Below are positions 637 through 19,680 of a stretch of 25,666 bases of DNA, one piece after another. Where the stretch lies: the NCBI GenBank assembly GCA_965649115.1, contig CBFGJN010000023.1:1-25666 (forward strand), given 5' to 3'. The stretch is from a candidate division WOR-3 bacterium (GTDB taxonomy: Bacteria; Hydrothermota; Hydrothermia; LBFQ01; DSFT01). Position numbers and translations under genes: made by a program. Under the pieces are notes generated by a model. The model made no database searches. It had not been told where the DNA came from and saw nothing but the letters and a program-made list of their open reading frames with translations. Positions within the stretch are counted from its first letter, which is position 1. The number at the start of each line of letters is the position of its first letter.

Positions 637-647
637 TTTCATTAATT

Positions 648-1743: not shown

Positions 1744-1751
1744 AAACTTAA

Positions 1752-2735: not shown

Positions 2736-2776
2736 GTTAAGTTTTAAAATTTTAAAGGTTATTTATTAAGAATTTA

Positions 2777-2866
2777 TACCTTGTCTAATAATCCTTTCCC
2801 ACCACCCTATAATTAAGCCTATTTGCTTTAATGCCCATTCTTATACCTTGGATTGATAATCAATTA
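2777..2866 (-). repeat. Degenerate MITE copy upstream of pgi/pmi
   Basis: TACCTTGTCTAATAAT end, TTTCCCACCACCCT, TAAGCC..GCTTTA, ATGCCCA, ATTGATAATCAAT. Confidence 0.7.
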
Positions 2867-2873
2867 CTTAATA

Positions 2874-3881
2874 CTATTTATCGGACAACTTTGATTTAAA
2901 ATTCAACTTGTAAAAACCTATAAATTTTTTTGTAATTCCAATAGCATAGTAATTTTCATCAATTTTAAAAATTTTTATAAAATCTTCAACCTCACTATCA
3001 GAATGATCATAAATTAAATTTCCATCACTATAATTAAAAACCTTAATAACACCTCTTTTTTCACCTTCTCTCACTGAATATCCACAAGAGAAAATTTTTC
3101 CATCATCAATAAAGGCATATCTAATAGTTTCGTCAAGATAATAAACACCCAAAATTCTTGGATTATAAATCCAAATATCTTCTCCCATTAAATCTTTTAA
3201 ATTAACATAAAATGTTCTTTGAGACTGACCATAAATTAAAATTGTTCTATCACTTAAGTTTAAAATGACATCCGAAATAATAATTTTCGTAGAAATTTTA
3301 TTGTACCACCTTAAATTTTTATTTTCAAAGAAATAAATGTAGAAATTCCTTTTTGAAAAACCTGCTATTATATAGTAAAAACTATCAGACTTTCCAAAAT
3401 ATGGAATAAATCCTTCAAAGTTTCTTATTATTATGCTATCCATATTTTTTATTGAAATAATTAAAACTTTCTTTGAAATAGTGTCGCTATTGGTTATAAA
3501 CTCGTTTATAACATTATACCTTCCATCAATTTCAAAAACTTTAATTAGATTTGTATCTAAAATATCTAAATTACCCGAATTTGAAACGACTATTTTACTA
3601 TCCTTACAAGCCAAATTACTAAAATTCCCCTTAACTAATAAAACAACTTTATTTTTCAAATAATCGTACTTAATAATTCCTTCATCTGTAAGAATGTATA
3701 AATTTTTTGAAATTTTACAAGCACTACTAACTTGTGACTTCAATTTATAACTATAAATTCTTTTATTTATATTTAAGTTATATGCTTCTACTCTATTTCC
3801 TACAAAATAGATTTTATCATCTTCAGCAAAAGAAAAAAATGGATAAAATTCAAGTTTAAACAAGAGAGATAACTCAATCAA
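2874..3881 (-). CDS. Hypothetical protein, probably exported and beta-propeller-like
   Basis: 335-aa ORF with TTG start, short hydrophobic N-terminus and beta-strand-rich pattern (KIFSCGYS..GVIKVFNYSDG); family not recognised. Confidence 0.6.
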   Translation of the reverse strand: MIELSLLFKLEFYPFFSFAEDDKIYFVGNRVEAYNLNINKRIYSYKLKSQVSSACKISKNLYILTDEGIIKYDYLKNKVVLLVKGNFSNLACKDSKIVVSNSGNLDILDTNLIKVFEIDGRYNVINEFITNSDTISKKVLIISIKNMDSIIIRNFEGFIPYFGKSDSFYYIIAGFSKRNFYIYFFENKNLRWYNKISTKIIISDVILNLSDRTILIYGQSQRTFYVNLKDLMGEDIWIYNPRILGVYYLDETIRYAFIDDGKIFSCGYSVREGEKRGVIKVFNYSDGNLIYDHSDSEVEDFIKIFKIDENYYAIGITKKFIGFYKLNFKSKLSDK

Positions 3882-3919
3882 GTTAATTGAAATTTTAAGG
3901 TATCAACGCTCAGTGTATC

Positions 3920-4130
3920 TGCTGTGTATAATAATTCTAAAAATACAATTATTTCTATGTTTTCCCACCCACCCCGAAAATAAGGCGGAGCCTTATAAGT
4001 ACCCCATCTTTTGCCATCAGGGGGCAGAGCCCCCCAATTAAACCCCTCAATTTTCGTAAGTAGATGTGCTGTGTCTAATAACTCTGAAATTATTTTTTTC
4101 CACCCACTCTATTTTCATTAGGGGGCTATT
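3920..4130 (-). mobile_element. Two tandem partial MITE copies
   Basis: Right ends TGCTGTGTATAATAATTCT (3920) and TGCTGTGTCTAATAACTCT (4067); TTTCCCACCCACCC, TAAGGCGGAGCCTTA, GGGGGCAGAGCCCCC. Confidence 0.8.
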
Positions 4131-4154
4131 TTCGTTTAAGAAATAAATCTTCCG

Positions 4155-6389
4155 CTACCAAACGAAAAATTCCTCCCTGTCAAATCTCTTAAATCCATAA
4201 TCTAGGTCATAAAAATTATTCAAATTTTCAAAACTAATCCTTGGAAATGGTTCTAAATCAAATGAAACAAAGTCCTTTGGAATTGATAATAAATAATTGT
4301 AAAAGCTTTGCCTTAATCCCAAAAATTTTTTATATCTTTCTCTAAAATCCTTAATTTTCAAAATTTCCAAAAATTCTTCATAAACATTCTTTGCTTCCTC
4401 ATCAACTTCAACAAAAACATCAATAAAATTTGGAATTTCTTTAATAATTTTAAATTCTTTTATTTTTTTAAAATCAAAGCACTTCAAACCTTTCAAAACT
4501 TCACTATCTAAATTCTTTCTTTTTATTACATCCTTATAAAATTCATCAATCATATTGTAAAATTCTCTCTCCTCAATAAACTTCATATCTTTTAGTAATT
4601 TTTCACTAATTTCCGTTAAAACAGAACCATAAATTATTGAAGATAAAATTCTATTTTCTCTTATTATTTTGAATATATAAACATCTGATAATTCCCTTTT
4701 AAAATTTCTATTACATCTTCCACAAACTTGAACAATACTATCAAATGGTCCTAAATCTCTATAAGCAACTTCAAAATCCAAATCAACACCTGCTTCAACA
4801 ACTTGTGTAGAAACCAAAATTATCTTCTCATTATTTTTTAAATCATTTTTAATTTTTTCTATTCTTTCCTTCCTATGCTTTGGAACGATGTTTGTAGATA
4901 AATAGAATATCTTAAAATTTTTTATTTCTTTTCTTAATTCTTTATACAATTCAACTGAACTTCTAATAGTATTCAAAACAATAAGGTGAGAATTATGTTT
5001 TTCTAAATTCTCCAATAAAAAATCCCTTAAATTTTCCAAACTATTAATTTCAAGTTTATTAACAATTCTTGTTCTATTTAAAATGTACTTTGATTTATTT
5101 GTTAAAATTTCAAAGCAATTGTCAAAAATAACAGGTTTTGTAGCAGTTGAAATAATGACATAACAACCCATTTTTTCAACAAGAACATTTAAAACATTCT
5201 TAATCAAATCCCAATATTTAACATCTATATTTTGAACTTCATCAAGAATGATAATTGAGCCTGCTATATTATGAAACTTTTTTATAAAGCTATTTTTATA
5301 AGCAATAATTGAATATAAAAGCTGAACAAATGTAGTAATTATTATTTCACTATTCCAAGAGGAAATAAGCATAAGACTTTCTTCAACACTCTTTTCTTCA
5401 TCTGTTTTGTATTCAATTTCAGAAAGATGATGATGTTTTAAAAGATATTCACTTTTATATTTTTCATAATCAGAAATTTCACTTTTTAAGACATTCTCAA
5501 AAACTTCATAAGTTTGCTCAATAATGCTTAAAAATGGTAAAGAATAAATAATTCTGGGTTTATATTTTCTATTTAATTTTTCTCTTATTTTTAGTGCTAA
5601 GGATAAATTTATAAGTGTTTTTCCAAGACCAGTTGGAGCATTAACAGAAATAATTTTTGGAATTTCTTTCAAATTTTCAAAATTTTTTAAAATTTCTTCA
5701 TAAAGTTCATTTCTTATATTATTTTCCTTAAAATGCTTTTTTCTATATTCATCAATAATATTTGAATTTATATGTCTTCTTCTTCTGAAATCTAAATTAA
5801 TAGCTGATTTCTTATCACAATCTATCAAAAGTGAAAATGTGTATGTAAGCTTAAAGTAATTTTCAATGTTTTCATTATTTTCATATTCGTAATTTAGTTT
5901 TCTTAATTGCCTTAAAACGATGTTATTTTTATCTGAAAAATCTAATTTTAAAAATTCAGTTATATCAAAATTTAACTCGCCTGAAATAACATCTTTATTC
6001 TTTTTTAAGTCTTCAATTTGCTCCTTCAAAACAGTATCCTCATAATTAAAATTACTTAAATCACCATGATGATGCCTTATTGCCAAATAACCGATAAGTG
6101 ATAGATTTTCCAATTTCTCCCTAATAAGCCAATAGGCACAAAATAAAGCAGAAATTAAACTATGTTTTGTTAAATTACTTCTCTGCCCATTTTTTAAATA
6201 GTTTTGAAAGAATGTTGTGTATTTTCCAAAATCATGAGATTTTCCAACAATTTCAAAAAATTTTTCATTTAAATCTAATTTTATGAATTCTTTTTGCTCT
6301 TTATAAATTTTCTTCATCCAACTTCCTACTTCATTCAAATGTTCAATTAATTTTTTGTTTGGATGAGAATAGAATTTCATTTCATCCAT
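4155..6389 (-). CDS. cas3: CRISPR-associated helicase/nuclease Cas3 (HD + SF2 helicase)
   Basis: SHP..L..HL, HDFGK, HHHG, DCDK HD motifs; APTGLGKT, LDEVQ, STAT, STQVVEAGVDLDF, QVCGRCNR. Confidence 0.95.
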   Translation of the reverse strand: MDEMKFYSHPNKKLIEHLNEVGSWMKKIYKEQKEFIKLDLNEKFFEIVGKSHDFGKYTTFFQNYLKNGQRSNLTKHSLISALFCAYWLIREKLENLSLIGYLAIRHHHGDLSNFNYEDTVLKEQIEDLKKNKDVISGELNFDITEFLKLDFSDKNNIVLRQLRKLNYEYENNENIENYFKLTYTFSLLIDCDKKSAINLDFRRRRHINSNIIDEYRKKHFKENNIRNELYEEILKNFENLKEIPKIISVNAPTGLGKTLINLSLALKIREKLNRKYKPRIIYSLPFLSIIEQTYEVFENVLKSEISDYEKYKSEYLLKHHHLSEIEYKTDEEKSVEESLMLISSWNSEIIITTFVQLLYSIIAYKNSFIKKFHNIAGSIIILDEVQNIDVKYWDLIKNVLNVLVEKMGCYVIISTATKPVIFDNCFEILTNKSKYILNRTRIVNKLEINSLENLRDFLLENLEKHNSHLIVLNTIRSSVELYKELRKEIKNFKIFYLSTNIVPKHRKERIEKIKNDLKNNEKIILVSTQVVEAGVDLDFEVAYRDLGPFDSIVQVCGRCNRNFKRELSDVYIFKIIRENRILSSIIYGSVLTEISEKLLKDMKFIEEREFYNMIDEFYKDVIKRKNLDSEVLKGLKCFDFKKIKEFKIIKEIPNFIDVFVEVDEEAKNVYEEFLEILKIKDFRERYKKFLGLRQSFYNYLLSIPKDFVSFDLEPFPRISFENLNNFYDLDYGFKRFDREEFFVW

Positions 6390-7144
6390 AAAATAAATTT
6401 ATTTTCACATTTTATTGCTTCAATCTCTTGTTTCAATTTTATAGGTTTTCCAAGTGGATTAACAATAAAATCATTTGTTCTTTTAATTTTTCTTATGTTT
6501 CCATCCATTAAAAAATCAACTGGCATCTTGTCTAAAATGAGAAAATCATTTTCAGAAATATCAATATAATCATAATAATCGTATGGAATTACTGAATGAA
6601 TAATATCGGTTTTTTCTTTAATTTCTTCAAACTTTTTTGGATTTTCAATAAATGCTAAAAATTCACTAATTCCAAGATATGGAGCGTACTTTATTTGATT
6701 ACTTTCTAAAATTTTCCAAAGCTCTTCTTCAATTTTAGAATTATTTTTAAAATTCAAATATATTCTATAACTTAAAAATTCATGATTTATTGGCATTAAA
6801 ACTTCTATTGATGTAGGATAATCTTCAACACCTCTTAAAAATTTTCTTAAAAATTTTTCAATACTTAAATCACCTTTCTTCGTTATACCTAAATCATCTT
6901 TCTCCGTTCGGTAATACTTTACCGTAAAAATGGATTTCTTAATAGGAGTTAGAATTTCAATTGAAATATCTAAATTTTCACTTGAAAAAATTTCATAATA
7001 ACTATCTCTTTCCATTCCAAGAATTCCCGCAATAATACCAATAATTGTTGTTCTTGGTGGAAAGTAATAACTTAATGAACTTGCATTTGTATAGAAAGGT
7101 CTAAAATGAGCAAATTTACCCTTAATTTCAAATGAAATTAACAT
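6377..7144 (-). CDS. cas5: Type I-B Cas5
   Basis: N-terminal GKFAHFR..SLSYYFPPRTTIIGIIAGILG and PYLGISEF; lies between cas7 and cas3. Confidence 0.92.
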   Translation of the reverse strand: MLISFEIKGKFAHFRPFYTNASSLSYYFPPRTTIIGIIAGILGMERDSYYEIFSSENLDISIEILTPIKKSIFTVKYYRTEKDDLGITKKGDLSIEKFLRKFLRGVEDYPTSIEVLMPINHEFLSYRIYLNFKNNSKIEEELWKILESNQIKYAPYLGISEFLAFIENPKKFEEIKEKTDIIHSVIPYDYYDYIDISENDFLILDKMPVDFLMDGNIRKIKRTNDFIVNPLGKPIKLKQEIEAIKCENKFILWMK

Positions 7145-8021
7145 TTGGGAACTTCTTTAAATTTTCATCTAAATACGAAACTTCATCACATCTCTTAACA
7201 ATAACTTTTGATATTTTATCTTTTATCTTATCTAAGGCATTCACAAGTTCATTTATATTAATTTTATAATCTTTAATGCTTTCAATAGCTTCCTTCTTAT
7301 CTATGCTTATAAACCTTCTTAAATCGCCTATTAAATAATCATCATTATATTCAATCCTTATATACAGAATTGGCATATGACCAATTTTGCTTCTTGTACT
7401 TGTTTCAAGGTTAATAGCAGGAAAAATTGATTCATCAAACAATTTAACATCATCTTCATTTAAATTTGTTTTTAAAGCCCAATACTTATTTATTCTTCCA
7501 TAAAACGCTATTAAAGAGTACTTTAACCTCCAATCCTTACCAATAGAACCACCTTCCTTTTTCTCACCTGCAAAATGACTTGTAATTGAAGGACTATCTA
7601 CAAACTCAACCATATTTAATGAATAACCCCAACTAAACTGAATAGGTCCTGTAAATTGAATTGATCTACCTTTATTTTTCTTATCAGAACCTCTAATTGG
7701 AATAGTAGCTCCGAAGAATTTTATATCTATGAATAATTTTGTAAGGTCATCTGGTGAAGGTTTCTTACCTAAGCTTTTTTCTACTTGTTCATATCTTTCA
7801 GTAGCATCAAGATAACTTCCATCATCTGCTTTCCTTATAAAAATATCCATATTTTTATGATGATATAAATAATCCCTTATGAATCTTTTTAGTCTAACAT
7901 CACTAACAAGATTGGTCATAGTTGAATAATCTATTCTTGGCTTATTCTCGTTATCAGGGTCTCCATTCGGATTACAAAGTTTTGCCTCATATAAAAGTAA
8001 AATCTCGCTATTCTTTATCAT
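7128..8021 (-). CDS. cas7: Type I-B Cas7 (Csh2/Cas7b)
   Basis: NPNGDPD..PRID, VSDVRLKRFIRDY, IDIKFFGAT, FTGPIQF, TRSKIG. Confidence 0.93.
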   Translation of the reverse strand: MIKNSEILLLYEAKLCNPNGDPDNENKPRIDYSTMTNLVSDVRLKRFIRDYLYHHKNMDIFIRKADDGSYLDATERYEQVEKSLGKKPSPDDLTKLFIDIKFFGATIPIRGSDKKNKGRSIQFTGPIQFSWGYSLNMVEFVDSPSITSHFAGEKKEGGSIGKDWRLKYSLIAFYGRINKYWALKTNLNEDDVKLFDESIFPAINLETSTRSKIGHMPILYIRIEYNDDYLIGDLRRFISIDKKEAIESIKDYKININELVNALDKIKDKISKVIVKRCDEVSYLDENLKKFPNVNFI

Positions 8022-8412
8022 CTTTTGAACCTCCTTCTTTTAGAATTTTATATGTTTCAAAAGCATAACCTGAAAGGATATAATATGTATTTTCATAACT
8101 TTTTAAATTCCAATTCTTAAAGTTTTTGTCAAACAACTGCTTACTTAATGAATAAATTACTTCATAATTTCCATATATTTCAAGTTGTTTCATTTTTTCA
8201 AGAACTTCATTATATAAATTTATTAACTTTTCTTTATCCATACCATTGAAATTTACTTTTTCAAGAATTGGCTTATATTTATAAGAATTATATTGAATTG
8301 AGCCTATTTTACCAATAACAACTCCAAGAAGGAAGAGCGCAGTTTCCATTTCGCCAAAAGAACAAGTTTTTATATACTCTATATAATCCTTTTCTAAAAC
8401 ATCTATATTCAT
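8008..8412 (-). CDS. cas11b: Putative Cas11b small subunit translated from an internal start in cas8b (134 aa)
   Basis: AGGAGGT at 8428-8422, 9 nt before an in-frame ATG at 8412; matches known internal translation of Cas11 from type I large-subunit genes. Confidence 0.72.
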   Translation of the reverse strand: MNIDVLEKDYIEYIKTCSFGEMETALFLLGVVIGKIGSIQYNSYKYKPILEKVNFNGMDKEKLINLYNEVLEKMKQLEIYGNYEVIYSLSKQLFDKNFKNWNLKSYENTYYILSGYAFETYKILKEGGSKDDKE

Positions 8413-9743
8413 ATCACTTCTACCTCCTTTTAAAAACTTTAAGAGTTGATGCGTCTTTAAGATGTACTCCACCTCATCAAATTTTCTTGATAACTGATAG
8501 GCATTATTTTCATAATAAATAGCCCGAAATCCAATTGTAAATTCTTTAATTAAATTACTAATTTCAATAAAACTTTCATTAAATAATATAGCAAAAATAA
8601 ACTTACGATTTTCTGAATATCAACAAATTCAACAAGATAATAGAAATCACTTAAATTTTTTATAAGATAACCTTCATCATTTATAAAATTCCCAAAACTT
8701 CTTCTAATATCAATAATTTTTTGTTTAATTTTTTCAATCCTACCATTTGGAATATCCTTTATTAAAGCAAAAACTTTAAATTGTTGTTTGTTTTGTTCAT
8801 AGAACAAATAATTTAGTAAAACAAAATTATCATAATCTTCAAATTCCCTATATTCTTCAATCTTTTTTTCAAATTCCATATTAAAAAATTCAAATGGATT
8901 TTTATAAAATTTTATATATTCTGACCATTTTTCAAGTTTATTCTTATTTAATTTAGGTTCTTTTATAAATTCTGGAATTATTAAATAGTTAATACTTCCA
9001 ACTTTTGAACTAAATTTGTTTAAAATAAAACTTTGTCCCTTTATTAAAATTTTATAGCAATTTTCACATAAAGCGAAATTTCCTTGCCAATCATTTGAAA
9101 TGTTTTGAGAAAAACCCACTTTATCATTTATATAGATTTTCATTTTTAATCTTGAAAAATCAGTAAAAAATTTTTTTGTTTCTTTTGAACAAAAATGACA
9201 AATAATTTTACCCTTTTGAGATTTATCTTCCAAAACTTTCCTTTCAATTAATTTCAAATAGCTTTCATTATTATGAATATCTTCACCATCAATTTTTACC
9301 GCCCAAAATGCAATCTCTTTCTCTTTAATGTTATTTTGCTTTAAGTAATTTTCAATAGTTTCCTTATAATTATCTTTTAATAAATCTCCATCATAAAAAA
9401 TTTTTTCAACTTCTAAAATTTTCTGCTTTAATTCCATATCTTCTATCTCATCTTTAAGAGATGTCCAACGTGAATAGCTTTTGTTCTTTTCACCATAAAT
9501 CCTTTTTTTATCACCAAAAACGACAAATGGTTGTTTTTGACGACCAGTTAGGCTCATCTTTACAAAGTTATATTTATATTCATCACCTTGTGAGTACTCT
9601 TTTGATAATAAAGAAATTTTTTCATTTTTTGTATCAAAGTTTATTTCTATTATATATTTTTCTTTTCCATCAATTTCTTCAACAAATGAACTAACTACTT
9701 CTATATCATAATTTTTACCAATTTGGTATAATCCTTTTATCAT
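8008..9743 (-). pseudogene. cas8b: Type I-B Cas8b/Csh1 split by one frameshift (about 578 aa if repaired)
   Basis: ORF 9743-8550 has CHFC..LCENC Zn motifs and YLIIP. The second frame is open from about 8618 (FAILFNESFIEISNLIKEF..) into ORF 8472-8008 (FLLGVVIGKIG..Q..KPILEKVNFNGM). One extra base in the A5 run at 8593-8597 would join them. Confidence 0.85.
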
Positions 9744-9759
9744 AAAGTTTTAAAATTTT

Positions 9760-9784
9760 AAGGGGGGTTGACTTTTAAAAAATG
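9760..9784 (+). repeat. 25-bp direct repeat, copy 1
   Basis: AAGGGGGGTTGACTTTTAAAAAATG, identical to 12487-12511. Confidence 0.9.
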
Positions 9785-9931
9785 CTGTGTCTAGTAATTC
9801 TGGAAGCATAATTATTTCTTATTTTTCCCACCCGCCCTAAAATCAAGCCTTTGGCTTAAAAAAAAACCCCATCTTTTGCCCCCCACAAAAACTATAATTT
9901 TCTTAAAATTTTATTAGTTATTGATTATCAA
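9783..9931 (-). mobile_element. MITE copy lacking its left end, upstream of cas8b
   Basis: TGCTGTGTCTAGTAATTCTG end, TTTCCCACCCGCCCT, AAGCCTTTGGCTT, TTATTGATTATCAA. Confidence 0.82.
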
Positions 9932-9934
9932 TTA

Positions 9935-10735
9935 TTACAGCAAAAACAATTGTATCTTTTTTAAGATCTCATCATAGGTTATTTTTTGTCCTTTTTTGGT
10001 TACTTTTAGCTTCTTAAGTATTACTCCTCGTATATAGTTTAGATATTTTTCTTTGAAAATTATAAATCCATTTTCTAGTTTACCGAAATTCTCTTCAAAA
10101 ATGTGTAAAAGATTTTTATATTCGTTCTTCTTACTTTCTTTCACTCTTGAACTAGCAATTTTATTTTTTATCTCATCAACATCAATAACTAAATATGGTA
10201 CTTCCACAACGATATCCACATGGGTTTGTTGTTTTTTTGTAAATCTTCTCTCTGATGCTTCCCTTCTATATGACACTTTTTTAACTTGAATCGCAATTTT
10301 TATTTTGTTCAAGTCTAAAACTGCATCTATTCCCATCATATCTAACTCTGATGTGGATATTAACTTCTCATCAAATAATGCATTCCACAAATATTGAAAA
10401 TGAAATTGAGTTAAAATAGACATCCAAATCCTATATAGTCTTGCTTTGAATCCTTCCTCTACAAATTGTAATGAACAGCCATAAAAATACTTCTTTATAA
10501 AATCATAAATGTATGGATTTAGCTTCTCACTCCAATAAATTTTAAAGATCTCATCGTAATCTTTAAAATCAGTTGTGTTCCAATAATACCTGTAATATAT
10601 TTCAAGGGGTAATAAATCTTTTGGAAGATCTTGTTCTATGGTTTTAATACCTCTTAGATGTGCATATTTCTGTATGTTTATACCCTCGAGAAATATTTCA
10701 AATTTATTTAAATCTTCTTTCCAACTTCTTGACAT
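9935..10735 (-). CDS. TaqI-family type II restriction endonuclease (likely TCGA)
   Basis: IKTIEQDLP, FIKKYFYGCS..FVEEGFKARLYR, SILTQFHF..WNA, GIDA, IQVKK.SYR, LENGFIIF, all recognised from memory as R.TaqI-like segments. Confidence 0.88.
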   Translation of the reverse strand: MSRSWKEDLNKFEIFLEGINIQKYAHLRGIKTIEQDLPKDLLPLEIYYRYYWNTTDFKDYDEIFKIYWSEKLNPYIYDFIKKYFYGCSLQFVEEGFKARLYRIWMSILTQFHFQYLWNALFDEKLISTSELDMMGIDAVLDLNKIKIAIQVKKVSYRREASERRFTKKQQTHVDIVVEVPYLVIDVDEIKNKIASSRVKESKKNEYKNLLHIFEENFGKLENGFIIFKEKYLNYIRGVILKKLKVTKKGQKITYDEILKKIQLFLL

Positions 10736-12063
10736 AGCGACATTTTTTCCAAATTTTTTAATTCATCCTTTGTGGGCAATGGTAATAACTTTAACTGCGT
10801 TATACTAAAATGGTAAGTTATATCCCTGAAAACATCATTTACATATCTTTTGATAATCTCAGAGTTAAGAAATTTGACAACTTCTTCGTCAGTAAGATCA
10901 AACTTCGTATTAGTTAGCGTATGTTTCCTCAAAAGGTGATATACATCTCCCATCCAAGGATATGCTTTGTAATCATAAGCTGCTCCAATTTGCCTATTTC
11001 CTCTGAAACCTAAACTAACAACAATATGTGGTTTATTAAAGAATTTTCTTAATTTTGTCTTTTTATCAGCTTCAATCCAATATCCAGTAGTAGATTTATA
11101 TACAATTGCTCCAATTTTTAAATTTTTTCCGTTTAAAATTGGGAGCAAATTTTTATCTTCTATATGATCTTTGGATTTTATGACATTTGGGTTATGCTTT
11201 ATTTCTGGAGTTCGGGGGGAAATTCTTATATCGTAAATATCTCCGAGACGAAAACTACAAAGTTCATCTACTTTTTTACTAAATTCGGTAAAAAATAAAA
11301 TAATATCACCATTCCAACTATCATTTTGAGTTAGTAATTTCGGTTTCCCATTATCATAATCATATAGAAGCAACTTCCCCCTTTCAATTGCTGATTTTGT
11401 AAATTTCAACACTACCGTAGTAACATCTGCCTCGGGCTTAAAAACACTAGATCCCATATAAATGATTTCTGTTTTTCCATTCTTTGCTAAAAATTCACGC
11501 AATTTTTTGAATTCATCTAAAATCATAAATGTGGCAGGAACAATAAATATAAGTTGGCCTTTTTCGTTTAGTAATTTTATAGATTTCTCTATAAACGCAC
11601 CATAAACATTGTATTTTCCATGCCAAGTTTCATATATCTTCTTGTATTTTTCCTTAGTTTTATTATCAACTTTTATGGTGTAATGTTCTGATAGACTTGG
11701 TATGCCGTATGGTGGATTACCTAAAATTATATCAAAGAGTTTGTCTGTTTCCCACAGAAGATAGTCTTTATTGATAATCTCTATCGCTAGGGCAAGATCA
11801 TTCTTGCGAAGATATTCTGCTATTTCTTTGTTGATTTCTACTCCAATCCTGACAATTGCATTATCAAAAATGTGCTTTTTGTTCTTTTTTACTCCTAATA
11901 AAAATTGACACATTCCGCAGGCTGGTTCAAGAATGTGTATATCGGATGCTTTACCTAATCTCTCATCCTCTATCAAATCAACCATAAAATCAACAAGCCA
12001 CTCTGGGGTAAAAAATATTCCTAGGTCTTTTTTCACCTGCTTAATTTTCTCATTCATCATCAA
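10708..12063 (-). CDS. M.TaqI-like N6-adenine DNA methyltransferase (gamma class)
   Basis: FFTP..VDFMV, ILEPACG, GVEI, LLWE..FDIILGNPPYG, TWHGKYNVYGAFIEK, IVPAT, LREFLA..GKT; annotated start is TTG, with ATGs at 12060/12057 as alternatives. Confidence 0.92.
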   Translation of the reverse strand: MMMNEKIKQVKKDLGIFFTPEWLVDFMVDLIEDERLGKASDIHILEPACGMCQFLLGVKKNKKHIFDNAIVRIGVEINKEIAEYLRKNDLALAIEIINKDYLLWETDKLFDIILGNPPYGIPSLSEHYTIKVDNKTKEKYKKIYETWHGKYNVYGAFIEKSIKLLNEKGQLIFIVPATFMILDEFKKLREFLAKNGKTEIIYMGSSVFKPEADVTTVVLKFTKSAIERGKLLLYDYDNGKPKLLTQNDSWNGDIILFFTEFSKKVDELCSFRLGDIYDIRISPRTPEIKHNPNVIKSKDHIEDKNLLPILNGKNLKIGAIVYKSTTGYWIEADKKTKLRKFFNKPHIVVSLGFRGNRQIGAAYDYKAYPWMGDVYHLLRKHTLTNTKFDLTDEEVVKFLNSEIIKRYVNDVFRDITYHFSITQLKLLPLPTKDELKNLEKMSLCQEVGKKI

Positions 12064-12078
12064 AATATGGGCTTCAGC

Positions 12079-12303
12079 TCAGTTTTCTTCATGTTGACTT
12101 TGCCCCTTTTCTAATGATTCAAGCCTACTATTTACTTCATCAAATCTTTTATTCATTTCACTCCTAAACTCTTCAAACATTTCTATTAATTCCAATAACT
12201 CTCTTGTTAAAAGTAAAATTCTTAAATTTTCAAAGTAATCTGGTCTTTCTCTTAATAAGTTTAGTAAATCTTCAAATTTTCTTATGACATATTCTTTTTC
12301 CAT
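12079..12303 (-). pseudogene. Probable 5' fragment of a thermophile coiled-coil protein (family often ending in a PD-(D/E)XK domain)
   Basis: FEDLLNLLRERPDY.ENLR.LLLT.ELL followed by heptads (FEEFRSEMNKRFDEVNSRLESLE), ending abruptly; family assignment from memory. Confidence 0.5.
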
Positions 12304-12331
12304 AGTTCTGAAAGTTTAAAGGATAGAAAGT

Positions 12332-12420
12332 TGCTTTGTCTAGTAATTCTAAAAGTCCTTTTTTTCTATGTTTTTCCCACCCTAATAATAAGCCTACCGC
12401 TTTAAAATAGCCATTTTTAT
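12332..12420 (-). repeat. Degenerate MITE right half
   Basis: TGCTTTGTCTAGTAATTCT, TTTCCCACCCT, TAAGCCTACCGCTTTA. Confidence 0.72.
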
Positions 12421-12486
12421 GTCTTGTGGTCTTTACCCTCATAAAATCAATAGTTTCAAATAGATTTTTATTGAGCGAAGCATTAA

Positions 12487-12511
12487 AAGGGGGGTTGACT
12501 TTTAAAAAATG
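12487..12511 (+). repeat. 25-bp direct repeat, copy 2
   Basis: Identical to 9760-9784. Confidence 0.9.
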
Positions 12512-12523
12512 TACCTTTATAAT
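12495..12523 (+). promoter_or_regulatory. Near-consensus sigma70 promoter, leaderless
   Basis: TTGACT(12495)-17 nt-TATAAT(12518), then 7 nt to ATG 12531. Confidence 0.8.
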
Positions 12524-12530
12524 TTAAATT

Positions 12531-14003
12531 ATGATTTTAATCCTTTTAACTCAATCAACACATAGACTTGTTTGGATGTTTTATCCATCGCAGGATTGTG
12601 TAACCTGCCATAAAGTTCCTTCAATAAAACTTAACGATACTACCATTGTTGTTGGTGGTTTTCACTGGGATGGTAATTATAGAAGACCTTTCATTATTGC
12701 TTTTGATACTTTTTTTCAGACAAAATTCTATCGAGCATATACTTGGCCTTCAATAACAAACTTAACAAACTTTGCTATTACTGACATGGTTAAACTATCA
12801 GATTCAGAATTTGTTGCCGTAGGTGGTGCTTCAAATTTACTAAGTAATAATAGTTATGGTCAAGTTGTTAAATTCAAAGTTAATGGTCAGATAGATTGGT
12901 CAGTATATATTAATAATATTAATTTACTTACAGGTGTTGATTATGATGGTAATAACATTATTATCACGGGTATGCAAGGTGATAGAAATGGCAATGCTCA
13001 ACGTTTAATCAAACTCAGTTCAAATGGAAATATTATTCTTCACAAATCTTATTCTAACGGAGCAAGGTCTTCTATGGATTTAGCTTATAACAGGTTTACA
13101 AAATCTTATGTATTATTAGGAAGACAAGGAAACCATGTTATAAAGTTGGATACCTTAGGAAATGTTATTTGGTCATATAGATACCCATCAAATGTAAAGG
13201 AGCAACCTCAGTCTATAATTGTAGATGGTGAAGGAAATTATATCTTTGTAGGTCACTTAGGAAATGATGCTGGTCCATCTGATATTCAGCTTGTAAAGTT
13301 AAACCCAAATGGAACAATAATCTATCAGAAACGTTATACTTCAAATTTGGGAAATTCTGATGAAAGAGCTTACAATATCTCGCTAGATTTTGATGGCAAT
13401 TACCTTATAGCGGGATTCATAAGATTAAGTATAAATTCTTCAATGCCTTTCGCCATGAAAGTTAATAAAAATAATGGTAATTTGATTTGGGTTAGAGCTT
13501 GGATTTTAGCACCCGCTGGGTTTTCAAGTAATAAAGGTATGGGTATTTTAAGTGTAAACCCAAATGTTTATTTATTAAGTGGTTATATTGGAAGTGGTGC
13601 AGATGCAAGTGATAAAAGACATTACGAATAATTTTAGTACTTATGATTTAAACTATATACCTCAAAGCATAAATTTGTCAATTTCAAATATCTCCTCAAA
13701 TGCTTTAAATTTTTCTTTAAACCCTTATTCACCTTCTCTTATTGAAAATGATGTTGGTGGCTCTTGTGCTACACCTGTTGATGTACAAGAGCATTAAATG
13801 GTTCATTTTTAACGATAAGGTCAAAGGACAAACAGGATATAAGGTTAGTAATTTATAGTTCAGATGGTAAGGTGATTTATAAGAATGAATTTAGAAATGT
13901 TGAAGGTGTTTTAAATGAAAAAATTAAGCTAAATAATGGAATTTATATTCTAAAAGTCAATTATAAAAATAAGCAGAAAATTAAAATTATCTTTGTTCAA
14001 TAG
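12531..14003 (+). pseudogene. Secreted beta-propeller protein with a T9SS type A-like C-terminal sorting domain, broken by two frameshifts
   Basis: Repeats such as VIKLDTLGNVIWS and LVKLNPNGTIIYQKRY. Continues in a second frame (about 13610-13797) and a third, unlisted frame RALNGSFL..VIYSSDGKVIY..LNNGIYILKVNY..KIIFVQ* ending at 14003. Confidence 0.8.
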
Positions 14004-16794
14004 CTTTCAATTTTTCCTCTATTCTGAAATTCATATAGTTAATAAATTCTTGGTCATTTACTTTAACAATTTCAGATTTTAAATTATTTAGTAGTTTTTT
14101 AGCTTCATCAAATTTCTTTAAATTTATTAAATTATCTGCAATTTCCAAATCAACTTGATAAATTTGAATATAAACAAAATTATCTTTTAATGTTAAGGCT
14201 TGAAGGAATTTTTTACCAAATTCAAAAAACTTAATAGATTTTTCATAATCACCTCTTATTTTTAAAGCATTTGCTAATGAAAATGCCACTGTTGCATAAT
14301 TTCTATAAATTCTTTGATGATTTTCATCTTTATAAACACTCTCATCAAATATACTTCTATATCTGAAAATCGTATCCTTTAAGACTTTATATTTTTTAGC
14401 ATAATTTTCAATATAATCAATTGGGTCAAAATTTCCACTTAATAAATAAGCTGTTCTTTCAATGTTAATTGAAGAAAATTCTTCATTTGTATCCGATACA
14501 TAATCGTTATTTATGCGCCAAGCTAATCCTTCAAGAATAAATAATTTTTTGTAATCTCTATAAGCTTCAGGATCACAAGTAATTGAAAAATAAATAGGAA
14601 CTTTAAATTCCCTCCCAATTATAACTTCTCTTACAAATTTTTCACCATCTTCAAGGTAAATTTTTGGAATTTTAACAATTCCCTTTTCTGTTAAAACATT
14701 AACATATTCATTAGTTTTATAACCAACACTTGTTGCAATCATGTCCCTAATAGCTAAATCTCTTAATAATAAAAATCTATTATTAGAAATAGGAATAAAA
14801 ACAGGAAGTTTATCAATATCTTCATAACTGAAACTTATAGGAGCACCCCAACCTTTCAATTGTTTTATGTACCAATTTGTATTCAATAATGATAAATTAG
14901 CATTAAAGATATCTCTTCTATAACCTAAAACTTCCTGAACAAACCAAACAGGGAATGTATCATTATCACCATTTGTAAATAGCACAACACCATTTTTTGA
15001 AACGATCGGACTTGAAAGGATATTATAAGGAAAATCTTCAGCTATATAATTTTTATGTCTATCGTTATATTGCCAATTGTGTTTTATCATTGCAAAGACA
15101 ACTCCAAAAGAAAATAGCAAGCCTAAAATTGTTGAAATTATTTGAAATTTAATATATTTATTTATTATTCTTAAAACTTCTAATAATCCAAAACCACTAT
15201 AAAATATAATTGAAGCATAAAGTAGAACATAAAAGTACTCCCTATCTCTAACTTCCATTCTAACTTGACCTGTAATCATATCAGGTTGAGCATTTGCTGG
15301 ATTTACTGGAAGACTTGGAGCATCTGCTGGATTTTGGTAAATAAATAAGCCAATTACCGCAACTACTAACCCAAAGAAATATAACCAAAATAATTTCTTA
15401 TTTTCACTATAATTTACAAAAATTCCAATAATCATTAAACCTAATAAAATATATAAAATTGGAAGAAATTGTTCTCTTGTTATATATGGAATTGATATAA
15501 ACTGCCAAGAAGTATATGTCCATAAAACTGCTAATTGTTCAATTAAAGGAATTCTTCTTTCAAGAGGATTTGGAGGTCCATATTGTTTTCTTGTTAGCAT
15601 GTCCATAAATGCTAACCAATTTGATGGATCTCCTTCATTTATCCTAACTATTGGATTATTAGTTAAATAGTATGCTCTTGCTAATAGCCAAAATTCACAT
15701 ATAATAGCTAATAAAACTAACAATAATGCCACACCTTTCCAATTTTTGTAAAGCTTTGTATAAATAAAAAATAATATAAGAGCCAAAAAACCACTTATAC
15801 TTGCAAAAATAACATTATAAGTAAAATGAAAGAAAATACTACCTAAAATTGATATAATTATTAAATTTGAAAAAATGTTATTAAAATTAAGTTTTTTCAT
15901 TCTATAAAGTGTCCAAATAATTCCAAAATAACATAAAATTAAGATGAAGTTAAAAACAAAGATATTTCTACTCAATTTTGACATTTCATCAGAAATAGCA
16001 TAAGGATTAACTGATATTACATTGGCAGAATTTGAAAATTTTTGAAAGTTAATTAAAGCAGTTTCATAGTAATGATATTGTAGGATATTATAAGAATTAA
16101 ACCAAATTGCTAAAATTGCTATTCCAACTGACAAAACACCTAAAAAGTAATTGTCCCAAATTTGCTTTCTATAAAATATAGCAAGAAATAAGAATAATCC
16201 TATAAAACCAAACAATGATATCGCTTGAATTCCAGTTGCTACTGCCATTATATACGCTGCTAACAATAACCATTTAGCTTTATTCGTTTTAATATATAAA
16301 ATCACAAAATATATAGCTATTATATTTGAAACAAGAGCAGGTGTATAAGTTTCTGCCTCAATTGAATTAAACCATTGAGAATAGGTAAATGCTTGCGTTA
16401 AACCTACAAATGCCCCTGCTATATGAACCCAATAATTATTATATTGATTTTTAAATAAACTTACTCCCTCTACAAAAATTAAATAAAAGAAACCTGCCAT
16501 TAAACCACCACTTAAAATTGGAATTAATGTAACTCTTAGAACGAATTGATTTGCAGGATAACCTTGTAATAGTTCTTTTAATTCTTTAAGTGGTAATGGC
16601 AATAGTGAAAAGAATTTAGCAAGAAGAACATATAACGGTGTCCCAGGAGGATGGGGAATACCCAGATTATAGCTTGAAGCAAGGAATTCTCCAACATCCC
16701 AAAATACGACTGTTGGAGCAGTAGTTAAAAAATATATAAATGATACAAATAGCGTTATTAAACTAAAAATTAACCACTTTATGGAAATTTTCAT
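13987..16794 (-). CDS. DUF2723/TMEM260-like polytopic membrane glycosyltransferase with TPR-like C-terminus
   Basis: [69 protein letters not shown]. Confidence 0.88.
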
Positions 16795-17417
16795 TTTCTT
16801 TTCTTTATTACTTCATCTATCATTCCATATTCTTTTGCCTCAAAAGCAGACATATAATAATTTCTTTCTGTGTCTTTTTGAATTTTCTCATAGGATTGTC
16901 CAGTATGTTCAGAAAGGATTTTTATAAGCAAATCTTTTAATTTTAAAATTTCCTTTGCTTCAATTTCAATATCAGTTGCCTGTCCTTGAACACCACCCCA
17001 AGGTTGATGAATCATTATCCTTGCGTTCGGTAATGAGAACCTCTTGCCCTTTGCTCCTGCTGCCAATAAGACAGCTGCCATAGAAGCAGCCATTCCTATA
17101 CATATTGTTACAACATCAGGCTTTATATATTGTATTGTATCGTAAATTGCAAGTCCAGCCGTTACATAACCCCCAGGTGAATGAATATATAAGTTTATGT
17201 CTTTATCAGGATCCTCCGCTTCTAAAAATAAAAGTTGGGCAACGATTAAATTCCCTACATATTCATCAATTGCTGTCCCAAGAAAGACAATTCTGTCTTT
17301 AAGTAATCTTGAATATATATCATAAGCTCTTTCACCCCTTGCAGTTTGCTCAATAACATATGGAATGTAGTATTGGTCATAAATTTTTTTATATTTCTCA
17401 ATTTTGTGCTTTTTCAT
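16791..17417 (-). CDS. clpP: ATP-dependent Clp protease proteolytic subunit
   Basis: [38 protein letters not shown] (Ser), IMIHQP (His), DTERN; SD AGGAGG. Confidence 0.97.
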
Positions 17418-17427
17418 TTTTAACCTC

Positions 17428-18501
17428 CTATAATTTGACAGGCATTATAAGGTACTTTAAATTATCTTCTTCTGACTTTATCAAGACAGGCTGACTTTCT
17501 GAATAAATATAAATATAAATATCATCTTCCATTTCTTTTACAATCTCATAAAATCTTTTATAATGAAAATAAATTTCAACATTATCTCCATTATACTTTC
17601 CAAGTAAATTTGATTTAAATTCTTCTCCATCATCTGACATAGCAAAAATTGTTATAGATTTATCTATTTTTATTCCAAATGTTTCTGGATTTAAAGGTGA
17701 CATTGCTTTAAGCTTTGTTTCAATTTCATTTTTATGAACATATAATTCATTAGCAATTCCCTCAGGAAATATCGCATTATAGTCAGGATAAGGTCCAGAA
17801 ATTAGTCTTATATTCATAAAACCATTAGTAAATCCAATTACCATATAGTCCTCATTAAATCCAACCTCAATATTTTCATATTCAATTTCATCAAGGATTT
17901 TATAAACATCTTTTGGAATGATTGCTTGAAATTCTCCAAAATTTTCATCAAAATTTTCAGTATATAAACCTAATCTATAACTATCGGAAGCCACAAAATT
18001 TGCTAATTCCCCTTTATTATCCCACAAAATCCCCGATAAAAATAATCTATTTTCATCTTCACCAGTACAAAATTCAACCTTTGATAAACAATTTATAAGT
18101 CTTTTTCTTGAAATTCTGAACATTTTTAGATTTTCTCTCAAATCATTAACTTCAATATAATCATCTGGATTTAAAGTAGGAATTTTATAATAGGTTTCAT
18201 CAGAAGATATTTTTAGAGCATTATTAACCTCTTCAAAACTTATAATTGACGCTGAAGGAATATTCTTTAAAATTGAAATAAGTGTTGAGCCATTTACAAG
18301 AACTTTACCATCTTCACTATCATAAACATCTATTGAGACATTATATTGAATATCAGTGTTACAGGATGTAATATAAACACTATTTCCAGAAACTTCTAAA
18401 AGAACTGATTTAAGAATATCCAAGGATTTCCCTTTTGGTAAAATTTTATTTATAATAGGGATAACTTTTTCAATTTCTCTTTTTTCTATGGAAAATTTCA
18501 T
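17428..18501 (-). CDS. dnaN: DNA polymerase III beta sliding clamp
   Basis: 357 aa; [30 protein letters not shown]-terminal YLIMPVKL. Confidence 0.92.
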
Positions 18502-18538
18502 AGTTTTGAAATTTTAAAGGATTTAAAATTTTTCTTTG

Positions 18539-18744
18539 TGCTGTGTCTAGTAATTCTGGAATTATTGATTTTTCTTATTTTTCCCACCCACCCTAATAAT
18601 AAGCCTTCGGCTTATAAATGCCCATTTTTAGGCTTCGGGGGGCTTCGCCCCCCCCATTAGACCCCCCATTAAATCTATAACTTCTTTAAAATTTTTATAA
18701 ACTATTGATAATCAAGGACTTATCATTATTTATTGGACAAAGCA
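18539..18744 (-). mobile_element. Full-length 206-bp MITE-like element with a perfect 9-bp target-site duplication
   Basis: TGCTGTGTCTAGTAA ... TTATTGGACAAAGCA, flanked by TTTTCTTTG at 18530-18538 and 18745-18753. Confidence 0.92.
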
Positions 18745-18753
18745 TTTTCTTTG

Positions 18754-18809
18754 TGCTGTGTCTAATAATTCTAAATTTCGGCTGTGGGAGCGTAGCTTTT
18801 TCCACCCGT
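18754..18809 (-). repeat. More decayed MITE right-end remnant
   Basis: TGCTGTGTCTAATAATTCT directly after the 9-bp TSD, then scrambled internal pieces. Confidence 0.75.
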
Positions 18810-18844
18810 TCATAAATTATTGACAATCAATTTTTTTCTGTAAT

Positions 18845-19680
18845 TTAAAGAGGTAAAAATGGATAAATTTTTGTTTTCGTTTTCAAAAGATAGTAAATTG
18901 GAGTAATTAAAGCTACAAAATAGTGATACCAAACAATTGGAGAAAAAATCAACATCTTCAGATAATTTAAGAAAAGGCAATAAAATTAAAATAATTAAGA
19001 ATTGAAAAAATTGAATAGTTTTTTTCACCGAAGCCGAAATGATATTTTGGATTAAGTTGAGCATATTTTATAAAATGAAAGAAACTTTCATCTATCCAAA
19101 TATAGAAATTCTTACCAATTAAAATAATAACAAGAGCACAAAAAATTATACAAAAAAACAAATTTTTTAATTTTCTTTTTAAAATCAACCAATACACAAG
19201 GATTATAGGAATTGCCTTTAAAACGATAGCAAGACTTAGAAAAAATCCACTTAGAAGAGAATTTTTTCTAAAATAGTAAGCAAGAACTGGTAGTGAAAAA
19301 AATGGAATGATATTAATTTGACCTACCATAATACTATCCAAAATTGGAGGTAAAAGTAATATAACACTATTTAAAGCTTCCTCAAAATCTTCAAATGTGA
19401 ATAAAGATATTATTAACATTATTGATGAAAATAATAGAACAAAAAAAGCCAATTGCCTGCTTGTCAAGTGATTACAAGCTGGTGATATAATATAAGCAAA
19501 TGTGGGTGGGTATCTATAATATGGAGAGCATTCATTCAATAACTTGTTTTCATTTAAACACTTACAAGCCTTATATATATTATTAAAATCAGAAGTCTTA
19601 CCCTCAACCGCCCTATATGTTCCAATAATAATTGAAAAAATTAGGCAAATTACAATAAAAATAAACTTTACTTTTGACAT
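18845..19680 (-). pseudogene. GT87/DUF2029-family membrane glycosyltransferase with a frameshifted 3' part
   Basis: DF..Y, YRYPPTFA, GQIN, LAIVLK.IP. The conserved SPIVWYHYF segment lies in an unlisted frame (MLIFSPIVWYHYFVAL..PL*, stop 18845-18847). Confidence 0.8.

Follow-up and report, generated by a model that had tools for sequence, protein, structure and literature searches.

Why does one repeat in the genome of a hot-spring bacterium end, at one unrelated gene after another, at the same distance from a −10-like hexamer and in the same orientation? We pursued this question from a 25,666-nt stretch of DNA (the window; CBFGJN010000023.1, positions 1..25,666) of the candidate division WOR-3 bacterium with assembly GCA_965649115.1 to its whole 1.85-Mb genome, related genomes and metagenome contigs. 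The repeat is non-coding and about 205 nt long (modal length 204-206 nt), carries imperfect terminal inverted repeats (TGCTGTGTCTAGTAA.. at one end and ..TTATTGGACAAAGCA at the other) and is flanked by a 9-bp target duplication that directly adjoins its TGCT.. and ..AGCA ends. Among 278 copies that run from end to end, this duplication is perfect in 114 and has one mismatch in 18; setting its length to 8 bp instead leaves 13 perfect cases, and 7 bp or 10 bp leaves none. With 732 copies (368 on the plus and 364 on the minus strand) that add up to 95,836 nt, or ∼5.2% of the genome, the repeat is short, non-coding and multicopy, has inverted ends and a duplication, and shares its ends with an autonomous element (see below), that is, it shows all the hallmarks of a MITE. 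An Rfam scan of the window matched 0 families, and no published description of the element was found in the literature searched. Throughout, the A end is the MITE end that faces the promoter box, and the opposite B end served as a control with the same scoring function. The features of the window are as follows.

18539..18746, plus strand, full-length MITE running from its A end (18539) to its B end (18746; profile match 18539-18744, model 1-205, score 195.9)
18530-18538 and 18747-18755, 9-bp direct repeat TTTTCTTTG flanking the MITE at 18539..18746
18756..18810, plus strand, second, truncated MITE copy directly after the common 9-nt spacer, forming a tandem stack (family D5 at 18752-18786; right boundary approximate)
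18511..18516, minus strand, −10-like hexamer TAAAAT of dnaN, 9 nt ahead of the start codon (ATG 18501); distance to the A end at 18539, 22 nt
9783..9936, plus strand, MITE copy (model 1-181; A end 9783)
9755..9760, minus strand, hexamer TAAAAT of a cas8b-like gene that starts at 9743; distance to the A end at 9783, 22 nt
3920..4049, plus strand, MITE copy (model 1-129; A end 3920)
about 4065-4099, extra A-end fragment beyond the copy at 3920..4049
3892..3897, minus strand, hexamer TAAAAT of the ORF at 2874-3881, which opens with TTG; distance to the A end at 3920, 22 nt
2777..2880, plus strand, decayed MITE copy (TACCTTGTCTAATAA..CCCACCACCC), seen by eye with no profile match; right boundary approximate
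2749..2754, minus strand, hexamer TAAAAT of a PGI/SIS gene that starts at 2735; distance to the decayed end at 2777, 22 nt
12332..12471, plus strand, MITE copy (model 1-159; A end 12332)
12313..12318, minus strand, hexamer TAAACT ahead of an ORF of 74 aa that starts at 12303; distance to the A end at 12332, 13 nt (minor register)
581..617, minus strand, 37-nt remnant with a B-type end at 581-604 and, at 610-617, a decayed A end, seen by eye, 13 nt before the hexamer at 631-636
631..636, plus strand, hexamer TAAAAT of a methyltransferase gene (ATG 648), 13 nt from the decayed end at 617
1..551, minus strand, three-copy stack facing the plus-strand gene at 648 (1-112; 122-327, full length; 387-551; families D2 and D4)
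1471..1740, minus strand, two MITE fragments (1471-1582, model 81-205; 1612-1740, model 16-145)
25441..25666, minus strand, two MITE fragments (25441-25541, model 1-104; 25551-25666, model 90-205); a copy is cut by the contig end

The earlier note on this DNA had placed the element end 22 nt from the hexamer at four genes, and we verified all four in the window (ends 2777, 3920, 9783 and 18539). For two more genes it had given 13 nt; both distances hold (12332 and 617), but one of the two hexamers, at 12313-12318, reads TAAACT rather than TAAAAT. The decayed ends at 2777 and 617 lie below profile detection and were recognized by eye only, and the window promoters with starts at 12531, 23348 and 25355 have no A end at register distance.

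Across the genome, the distance between A end and hexamer is sharply peaked and not flat. Within the 435 complete A ends, the major mode comprises 132 at 22 nt and 46 at 21 nt, with 5 at 23 nt and 2 at 20 nt, and the minor mode comprises 32 at 14 nt, 13 at 15 nt, 8 at 13 nt, 7 at 16 nt, 2 at 12 nt and 1 at 17 nt; the proposal that 13 nt reflects 22 minus 9 thus gives way to a minor mode at 14 nt. A further 15 A ends lie at other distances and 172 have no motif within 48 nt. Most of these motif-less ends stand within stacks, and in an earlier classification 112 A ends without a motif at register distances adjoined another copy; about 60-75 stand elsewhere, which weighs against a homing model. 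The 9-bp duplications are intact in both registers, and the duplicated 9 bp of the major register occupy positions 14-22 upstream of the hexamer, overlapping the expected position of a −35 hexamer. Between hexamer and element, the flank carries little information at positions −1 to −19, in agreement with the observation from the window that the intervening nucleotides are unrelated between loci. Two accounts of the double register were rejected: no subfamily difference separates the 22-nt from the 14-nt class, and there are neither 1-nt-gap junctions nor an end-like signal in the flank, as insertion of the 22-nt class into the end of a 14-nt copy would have it.

The two ends of the element differ strongly in this respect. 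At 20-23 nt we found 185/433 A ends compared to 4/303 B ends (Fisher p = 9e-46), at 12-17 nt 62/433 compared to 8/303 (Fisher p = 2e-8), and in both registers pooled 247/433 compared to 12/303, so that the element has one orientation relative to the promoter, as the window had led the earlier note to hold. This orientation probably stems from a difference between the two ends. One might instead suppose that insertion is random and that purifying selection in a compact genome has left only harmless positions and orientations; there is little intergenic space, and the element accompanies 305 of the 640 boxes that precede an ORF compared to 72 of 1,414 that do not, which selection would also give. 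We regard this account as very unlikely in view of the single-nucleotide precision of the register (178/435 A ends at 21-22 nt), the reuse of identical 9 bp by copies of different length, an end bias reported as ∼45-fold in frequency within the same intergenic regions, and the fact that the parent IS keeps this register in other samples, in front of unrelated genes. Selection against insertions into genes must also shape the pattern, and it is inseparable here from targeting.

The same data speak to replication. IS orientation has been linked to replication and the sliding clamp (in the part of PMC3971601 that we draw on), and almost every gene of the window has the same strand; orientation could track the direction of replication, as has been suggested for a number of IS, with the link to gene direction being secondary. 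Against this, the genome-wide copies are evenly split between the strands, the copies are inverted before the only plus-strand window gene with an adjacent stack (start 648), and a single-nucleotide register to an adjacent box cannot come from the direction of replication; we give this account scarcely any weight.

The register is measured from a box that belongs to the host and not to the element. The genome holds 2,185 matches to the box (consensus CTTTAAAATTT), 640 of which sit 3-16 nt (modes 7 and 9) before the start codon of an ORF of at least 60 aa, and 335 of these 640 have no element nearby. Judging from its position and its likeness to TATAAT, the box is probably the promoter's −10 element; host promoters here mostly come without a −35 box. 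Within the window, it is confined to the first genes of units, and Shine-Dalgarno-like sites precede 3 of the 10 listed internal genes; the genes behind the box are predicted to be leaderless or near-leaderless first genes of transcription units. Could the TAAAAT box nevertheless be part of the mobile unit, such that the element is a portable promoter with a −10 box of its own? Its distance to the element is fixed, the element interior carries a box-like motif (CCTTAAAATTTT) and 131 of the box matches lie inside copies, and the poor conservation of the intervening flank between sister genomes would fit as well. Yet the duplication adjoins the TGCT.. and ..AGCA ends, leaving 13 nt and the box outside the transposed unit, and if the box were transposed, each insertion must have placed it 6-10 nt ahead of a start codon. 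Moreover, the box stands without an element at the 335 gene starts mentioned above and at orthologous promoters of relatives. In comparison with the sister genome G002, 42 of 101 orthologous promoters are occupied here and empty there, with box and leader conserved at these 42 empty promoters, and the dnaN promoters of two further relatives (G003 and G004) have TAAAAT and no element; within the genus, G001 and G004 are free of the element. Both the element-free boxes and the empty alleles answer the concern that the motif travels with the element, and a portable promoter is highly improbable.

The sister genomes offer three further observations. For the ORF at 2874-3881, the orthologous contig of G002 begins with GCA, 22 nt and TAAAAT. 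Sister genomes show little conservation of the flank that separates box and element, which weighs against a homing model; at positions 14-22, identity is 0.31 between empty and occupied promoters, 0.72 between empty ones and 0.32 for random pairing. A two-flank search for empty sites against G002 was swamped by element copies in the flanks, and contigs from public runs, placed with regard to empty alleles and RNA ends, gave joints driven by the repeat.

Copies also accumulate in front of one another. Close junctions between copies of the same orientation have exactly 9 nt between them in 70 of 77 cases, and in 34 of these 70 those 9 nt exactly match the 9-mer on the promoter side; one stack consists of three copies of different length with the common 9-mer aaatttttg. 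Since the stacked copies have identical 9-nt spacers, the same target has been hit repeatedly. Of 29 stacks compared, 19 spoke for the promoter-proximal copy as the youngest and 10 against (p = 0.14), which is not significant.

Which transposase moves the element? Contig termini carry IS left ends in which the MITE B end is followed by the start of a transposase ORF. The left end matches the MITE B end over ∼24 nt and the right end matches the A end over ∼18 nt, and with 10 left and 16 right ends, every one at a contig terminus, the genome holds at least 16 copies. The IS also has the register of the MITE: 11/16 right ends lie 21-22 nt from TAAAAT and 3/16 adjoin another copy after 9 nt, and in metagenome contigs, where the hexamers are −10-like and precede different genes, the distance is 21-22 nt for 5/7 right ends and 14 nt for 1/7. 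The transposase pieces of the genome are N-terminal only, ∼49 aa long and 96% identical to P0001, a 300-aa protein with PF01609 and PF13737 that scores 245.5 bits on NF033579 (cut-off 140) and is only ∼30% identical to IS5-like transposases on plasmids; the ∼49-aa pieces alone reach 15 bits on PF13737, below its cut-off. Six-frame searches of the genome with PF01609 and PF13737 gave no matches because the interior of the IS is unassembled, a transposase scan of genome_contigs likewise gave no locus, and no complete intact IS copy was seen in the genome. The sole complete copy, in a metagenome contig (L066, 922 nt), shows a broken frame and no matching 9-bp flanks. An indirect sign of duplication by the IS is the 9-mer tctcttttt, which precedes an IS left end (contig C93) and follows an IS right end (C43) of one stack.

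Other candidates for the parent were rejected. Among 30 relatives, PF01609 was found in none within the genus; the loci outside it lack the MITE ends, and tblastn with their ORFs matched neighboring genes only. Inverted end pairs 0.7-4 kb apart enclose only host genes, a composite at C11:31359-32784 has a perfect 9-bp repeat and no transposase, an A end with ∼4 kb of other DNA behind it (C68 and C69) showed no transposase by eye, and the multi-copy ORFs turned out to be small nuclease-like families.

These findings bear on the affinity of the element. The earlier note had proposed a non-autonomous element with a 9-bp target overlapping the −35 position and a constant spacing to the −10 boxes of the host, which our data support. 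It had likened this element to Mutator-like ones (ISLre2/TnGBS); the search that it suggested, for a DDE transposase with the same ends, led to an IS of the IS5 family, IS903 type, with copies cut by contig ends. Derivation from a Mutator-like ISLre2/TnGBS-type transposon is hardly credible given that the transposase of the IS that shares the MITE's ends is of the IS5 family and that those elements insert 15-17 bp upstream of a −35 box, as against 21-22 nt upstream of a −10 box here; NF033529 (ISLre2) had no match in the genome, a weak argument in that the control likewise matched in no genome. The MITEs are thus very probably non-autonomous derivatives of a resident IS5-family, IS903-type IS that homes to promoters.

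We propose that a DDE transposase of ∼300 aa would cut the target with a 9-bp stagger and join the element in one orientation, with its A end 21-22 nt (major) or 13-16 nt (minor) upstream of the host box. The promoter rather than the element would set the register, and because of this the next element would enter the promoter-proximal copy of the same 9 bp, giving head-to-tail stacks with identical 9-nt spacers. As to how the site is sensed, our best guess, by a modest preference, is that the transposase reads the AT-rich box directly and asymmetrically, since the insertion point lies inside the stretch that a bound RNA polymerase would cover. A less likely route is tethering to RNA polymerase or a σ factor, and a rather improbable one is tethering to another DNA-bound host protein.

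Elements with some of these traits are known from other organisms. The Correia/NEMIS elements of Neisseria are likewise short and non-coding, with inverted ends and target duplications, and abundant in intergenic DNA near promoters, but target a short sequence (TA) and are not known to keep a fixed register or orientation with respect to promoters. Yeast Ty3 and Ty1 and Dictyostelium TRE5-A also integrate at specific positions near transcription starts and thereby spare genes in compact genomes; they belong to the eukaryotic retroelements and are tethered to RNA polymerase III factors, whereas the element described here is a bacterial DDE transposon. In bacteria, the only oriented site-specific insertion beside promoters in the literature searched is that of Mutator-like elements. 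TnGBS, ISLre2 and ISKra4 insert in one orientation at a fixed distance upstream of σA-type promoters, namely, 15-17 bp upstream of the −35 box for TnGBS/ISLre2, with the orientation ascribed to differences between the two inverted repeats (the parts of Guerillot et al. 2014, PMC3942029, considered here). As far as those parts go, TnGBS/ISLre2 and the present element are alike in oriented, fixed-distance insertion upstream of promoters that spares genes, a likeness in behavior only: their transposase is Mutator-like and unrelated to the IS5/IS903 type, which makes them analogues and not relatives. Their register of 15-17 bp upstream of the −35 box also differs from the one here, 21-22 or ∼14 nt upstream of the −10 box and thus on the −35 position itself. 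For the most part, promoters of the present host have no −35 box, and the main passenger is a MITE, which makes up 5% of the genome and occupies about half of such promoters and for which the same parts of PMC3942029 show no counterpart.

Kinship lies with the IS903 group, which shares the 9-bp duplication (described for IS903B in the portion of PMC13618097 used here), the ∼300-aa DDE transposase with PF13737 and PF01609 and the match to NF033579. Ends of the type TGCTTTGT..AATAA also occur in IS with PF13737 ORFs of the same phylum. The target preference of IS903 is the palindromic WTTYA-N9-TRAAW directly beside the duplication (Table 1 of PMC2577343, the part we rely on), whereas the motif here is one-sided, 13 or ∼5 nt from the duplicated 9 bp, and fixes orientation. 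No symmetric target motif was seen here, where 36/51 and 12/15 distal flanks are themselves other copies.

Taken as a whole, we tentatively suggest, as a joint reading that is possible and not the likelier one, that promoter homing arose a second time in bacteria, through an IS5/IS903-type transposase that reads a −10-only promoter directly and asymmetrically, and that element and host have shaped each other. If so, half of the leaderless promoters have their −35 position filled by element DNA, the stacks may serve hundreds of genes as an insulator or UP-like upstream context, and a promoter design without a −35 box may be what permits the host to tolerate the elements. Two unrelated transposase families with the same behavior would offer a natural comparison of promoter sensing, here with a register inside the polymerase footprint and hundreds of independent insertions supplied by the MITE. 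The element would also mark promoters of an uncultured phylum at single-base resolution, and a small transposase with so strict a landing rule could serve as an insertion tool. A practical side of this abundance is that assemblies of the lineage break at element sites: 76 of 198 contig ends fall in a MITE and 26 more in the IS.

The repeats in the window belong to a single family, present in both orientations: a MITE that creates a 9-bp target duplication. Read in the orientation in which one end is TGCTGTGTCTAGTAATTC.. (the A end), the element closes with ..ATTATTGGACAAAGCA (the B end); the MITE ends are therefore imperfect inverted repeats. The modal length is 204 to 206 nt (287 A-to-B pairs). 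The 9-mers just outside the two ends match perfectly in 114 of 278 copies and with a single difference in 18; as a control, flanks of 8 nt matched perfectly in 13 cases and those of 7 or 10 nt in none. In this genome, exact copies of the A-end 18-mer number 52, rising to 510 when up to three mismatches are allowed. A profile made from 87 oriented full-length copies returned 732 non-overlapping matches that together span 95,836 nt (5.2% of the genome), 368 of them on one strand and 364 on the other; the A end is complete in 442, the B end in 309 and both ends in 207. The copy at dnaN illustrates the arrangement:

18539-18746: MITE copy at dnaN, with TTTTCTTTG flanking it on either side

A second copy starts directly past the distal TTTTCTTTG. 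Each MITE copy also carries an internal box-like motif, CCTTAAAATTTT, at model positions ~145 to 160 (e.g., window 18683-18700), which points to the B end, that is, away from the host gene.

The earlier note had proposed that the element inserts in one orientation with its end 22 or 13 nt from a TAAAAT hexamer, and all six of its window cases stand, apart from minor corrections: at 12313-12318 the hexamer is correctly placed but reads TAAACT, and the MITE ends at 2777 and 617 are present but decayed, visible by eye only. Across the genome, the distance histogram is peaked, as that reading had anticipated. Among 435 complete A ends, a major register lies at 22 nt (132 ends) and 21 nt (46), with 23 nt in 5 and 20 nt in 2, and a minor one at 14 nt (32) and 15 nt (13), with 13 nt in 8, 16 in 7, 12 in 2 and 17 in 1; a further 15 ends fall at other distances, and 172 lack a motif within 48 nt. 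Of the ends put at neither register by an earlier classification, 112 adjoin another MITE copy. The derivation of 13 nt as 22 minus 9 thus holds for the two window cases but not genome-wide, where the minor mode is 14. With the B end as a natural control, A ends stood 20 to 23 nt from a hexamer in 185 of 433 cases versus 4 of 303 for B ends (Fisher p = 9e-46), and 12 to 17 nt away in 62 of 433 versus 8 of 303 (p = 2e-8). Intact 9-bp duplications are kept in both registers alike, and comparison of the end sequences of the two registers' copies revealed no difference. Outside the A end, the flank reads AAATTTTAAAG(G) in register genome-wide, and the 19 nt adjoining the MITE carry little information, in agreement with the claim that the DNA between hexamer and element is unrelated. 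At cas8b, the 22 nt from box to MITE (window 9762-9786, plus strand) are AAGGGGGGTTGACTTTTAAAAAATG, which recurs at 12486-12510, where it provides the gene at 12531 with its TTGACT −35 box; the A end at cas8b stands where the −10 box after AAGGGGGGTTGACTTTTAAAAAATG would be.

The motif is the host's, not the element's. The sequence CTTTAAAATTT, allowing one mismatch, occurs 2,185 times in this genome, 131 times inside MITE copies and 2,054 times outside. A start codon opening an ORF of at least 60 aa follows 3 to 16 nt on at 640 of the outside motifs, most often at 7 nt (165 cases) or 9 nt (123), and a MITE copy lies within 45 nt upstream of 305 of these boxes and is absent there from 335. In the window, the motif stands only ahead of the first genes of transcription units, Shine-Dalgarno-like sites are found at 3 of 10 listed internal genes, and one gene has a textbook TTGACT-17-TATAAT 7 nt ahead of its ATG. 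Taking first-gene placement, start-codon spacing and this last gene together, the motif is best read, from its position, as a putative −10 box of leaderless or near-leaderless genes. No conserved −35 box was found at 305 occupied or 334 unoccupied promoters, and TTGACA-like hexamers (up to two mismatches, spacer 16 to 18) occur at 24 and 68 of these, respectively.

Among five genomes of the genus searched, the MITE is present in three—this one, its sister genome G002 and G003—and none was found in G001 or G004; the sole match in 26 genomes outside the genus was weak and 27 nt long. At dnaN, G003 and G004 have the box and leader, with the element absent. Of 101 orthologous promoter pairs compared between this genome and 336 kb of G002, 42 are empty in G002 and occupied here, 8 are the reverse, 22 are occupied in both and 25 are empty in both; the other 4 have no recognisable hexamer in this genome. 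The box is thus retained at element-free promoters and does not travel with the element, in line with the earlier note. Between the sister genomes, box, leader and gene are conserved and the box-to-element DNA only weakly so: ungapped identity at positions 14 to 22 is 0.31 in 20 pairs in which this genome's promoter is occupied and that of G002 is empty, compared with 0.72 in 25 empty/empty pairs and 0.32 under random pairing, and identity at positions 5 to 13 is reduced in the former too. Some "empty" alleles hold end-like remnants, and promoters occupied in both genomes have a species-specific 9-mer, repeated inside each species' own stack. Long occupation with decay, deletions and small indels likely lies behind this poor conservation.

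Single targets are used repeatedly. There are 106 neighbouring same-orientation pairs whose junction ends are complete, and in 77 of them less than 40 nt separates the two copies. The gap measures exactly 9 nt in 70 of these pairs, 8 nt in four and 7 nt in one, and the 9-nt spacer equals the promoter-side 9-mer of the proximal copy in 34 of the 70. Shared spacers of this kind are predicted by a ruler anchored on the promoter. Stacked copies differ in length (202, 150 and 158 nt in one stack sharing aaatttttg) and are therefore separate insertions, not local duplications. Such a ruler would also make the proximal copy the youngest, which is seen as a trend only (19 versus 10 of 29, p = 0.14).

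The earlier note suggested looking for a DDE transposase bounded by the MITE's terminal repeats and named Mutator-like elements as the known parallel; the transposase with matching ends belongs to the IS5 family. An ISLre2-type model found no match in this genome, its positive control being likewise silent; PF01609 and PF13737 searches of the genome and its genus gave no match, and the DNA between paired MITE ends here holds host genes only. Elsewhere in the phylum, PF13737-bearing ORFs adjoin the ends TGCTTTGTCCAAAAA (genome G013) and TGCTTTGTTGAATAA (genome G255), and tblastn with these ORFs matched two contig termini of this genome, where a MITE B-type end precedes a host-type box and an ORF opening MGKINWQKYNKELVRRGEIW.., which the contig end cuts off. 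The 49-aa piece of this ORF shares 96% identity with a metagenome protein of 300 aa that carries PF01609 and PF13737, scores 245.5 bits on NF033579 (cut-off 140) and is ~30% identical to IS5-like transposases on plasmids. In this parent IS, the host-type box, 6 nt ahead of the ATG, is predicted to drive the transposase inward from the B end. The transposase gene runs from B end to A end, the direction of the downstream host gene. MITE and IS have ~24 nt in common at the B end and ~18 nt at the A end, and their interiors share nothing.

The parent IS shows the same insertion behaviour. On metagenome contigs with relatives of the 300-aa protein (61 to 88% identity, best segment), the IS right end, ..GAATTATTGGACAAGGCA, is followed by TAAAAT, TATAAT, TATACT or TAAACT ahead of different genes, one of them tuf, the intervening distance being 22 nt at three loci, 21 nt at two and 14 nt at one; a seventh right end adjoins a MITE remnant. 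In this genome, blastn with the metagenome IS found 10 left and 16 right ends, ~125 nt deep and all at contig termini, and therefore at least 16 copies with unassembled interiors. Eleven of the 16 right ends lie 21 to 22 nt from TAAAAT, three adjoin another copy after 9 nt, one is at 38 nt and one is 22 nt from TATTTA. The 9-mer tctcttttt stands before an IS left end (contig C93) and after a right end (C43), in a stack that finishes 13 nt from a box.

What calls for a mechanism is thus a set of defined ends, a 9-bp duplication, two registers, one orientation, reuse of a single target and a parent IS that does the same. The transposase itself would set the register. TnGBS-type elements, as described in PMC3942029, insert 15 to 17 bp upstream of the −35 box, which places them at the margin of the polymerase-covered stretch, whereas the 9 bp duplicated here lie 14 to 22 nt (or ~6 to 14 nt) upstream of the hexamer, inside it. 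Because of this position, our preferred explanation is that the AT-rich box is recognised directly and from one side; that variants such as TATAAT and TATACT also serve as targets counts against pure sequence reading. Orientation is probably set by the two MITE ends differing after position 15, by analogy with ISLre2, for which PMC3942029 proposes that differing ends determine orientation. The closest systems in behaviour are TnGBS, ISLre2 and ISKra4, and the closest in descent is the IS903 group of the IS5 family. The IS903 target motif listed in Table 1 of PMC2577343, WTTYA-N9-TRAAW, includes TTTTA, part of the box on the other strand; it adjoins the duplication directly, whereas here the box lies apart from it. 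Full-text searches, with most subscription journals outside their coverage, turned up no publication in which IS5-family elements or MITEs home to promoters and no match for oriented insertion sequences upstream of leaderless promoters.

The assembly (1,848,020 bases, 99 contigs, 27.6% G+C; contig C23 is the entire window) has 198 contig ends, 76 of which fall within a MITE copy and another 26 within the parent IS. This family is the main cause of its breaks, and the transposase gene is absent from it. Window gene content is bacterial (dnaN, clpP, a type I-B-like cas operon and a TaqI-like restriction-modification pair), with no Rfam match in the window. The cas8b-like gene (8008-9743) is split or frameshifted, since its ORFs at 8550-9743 and 8008-8472 match PF09484 profile positions 1 to 395 and 478 to 601, respectively. 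Elsewhere, C11:31359-32784 (1,426 nt) is delimited by MITE-type ends with a perfect 9-bp repeat, TATATCTTT; within it, a truncated MITE copy and a full one accompany a pair of minus-strand ORFs (246 and 66 aa) that have a box of their own. The whole segment may represent a composite mobilised as a single unit. At C68:~4000-8160 plus C69:1-101, a minor-register A end is followed 45 nt later by ~4 kb of non-MITE DNA, which holds ORFs of 291, 650 and 239 aa, and the junction is identical on both contigs. Finally, contigs C4, C35, C39, C42, C64 and C84 carry ORF families of 175 to 198 aa, in 2 to 5 copies and often as adjacent pairs, which we take, by eye, to resemble PD-(D/E)XK nucleases.
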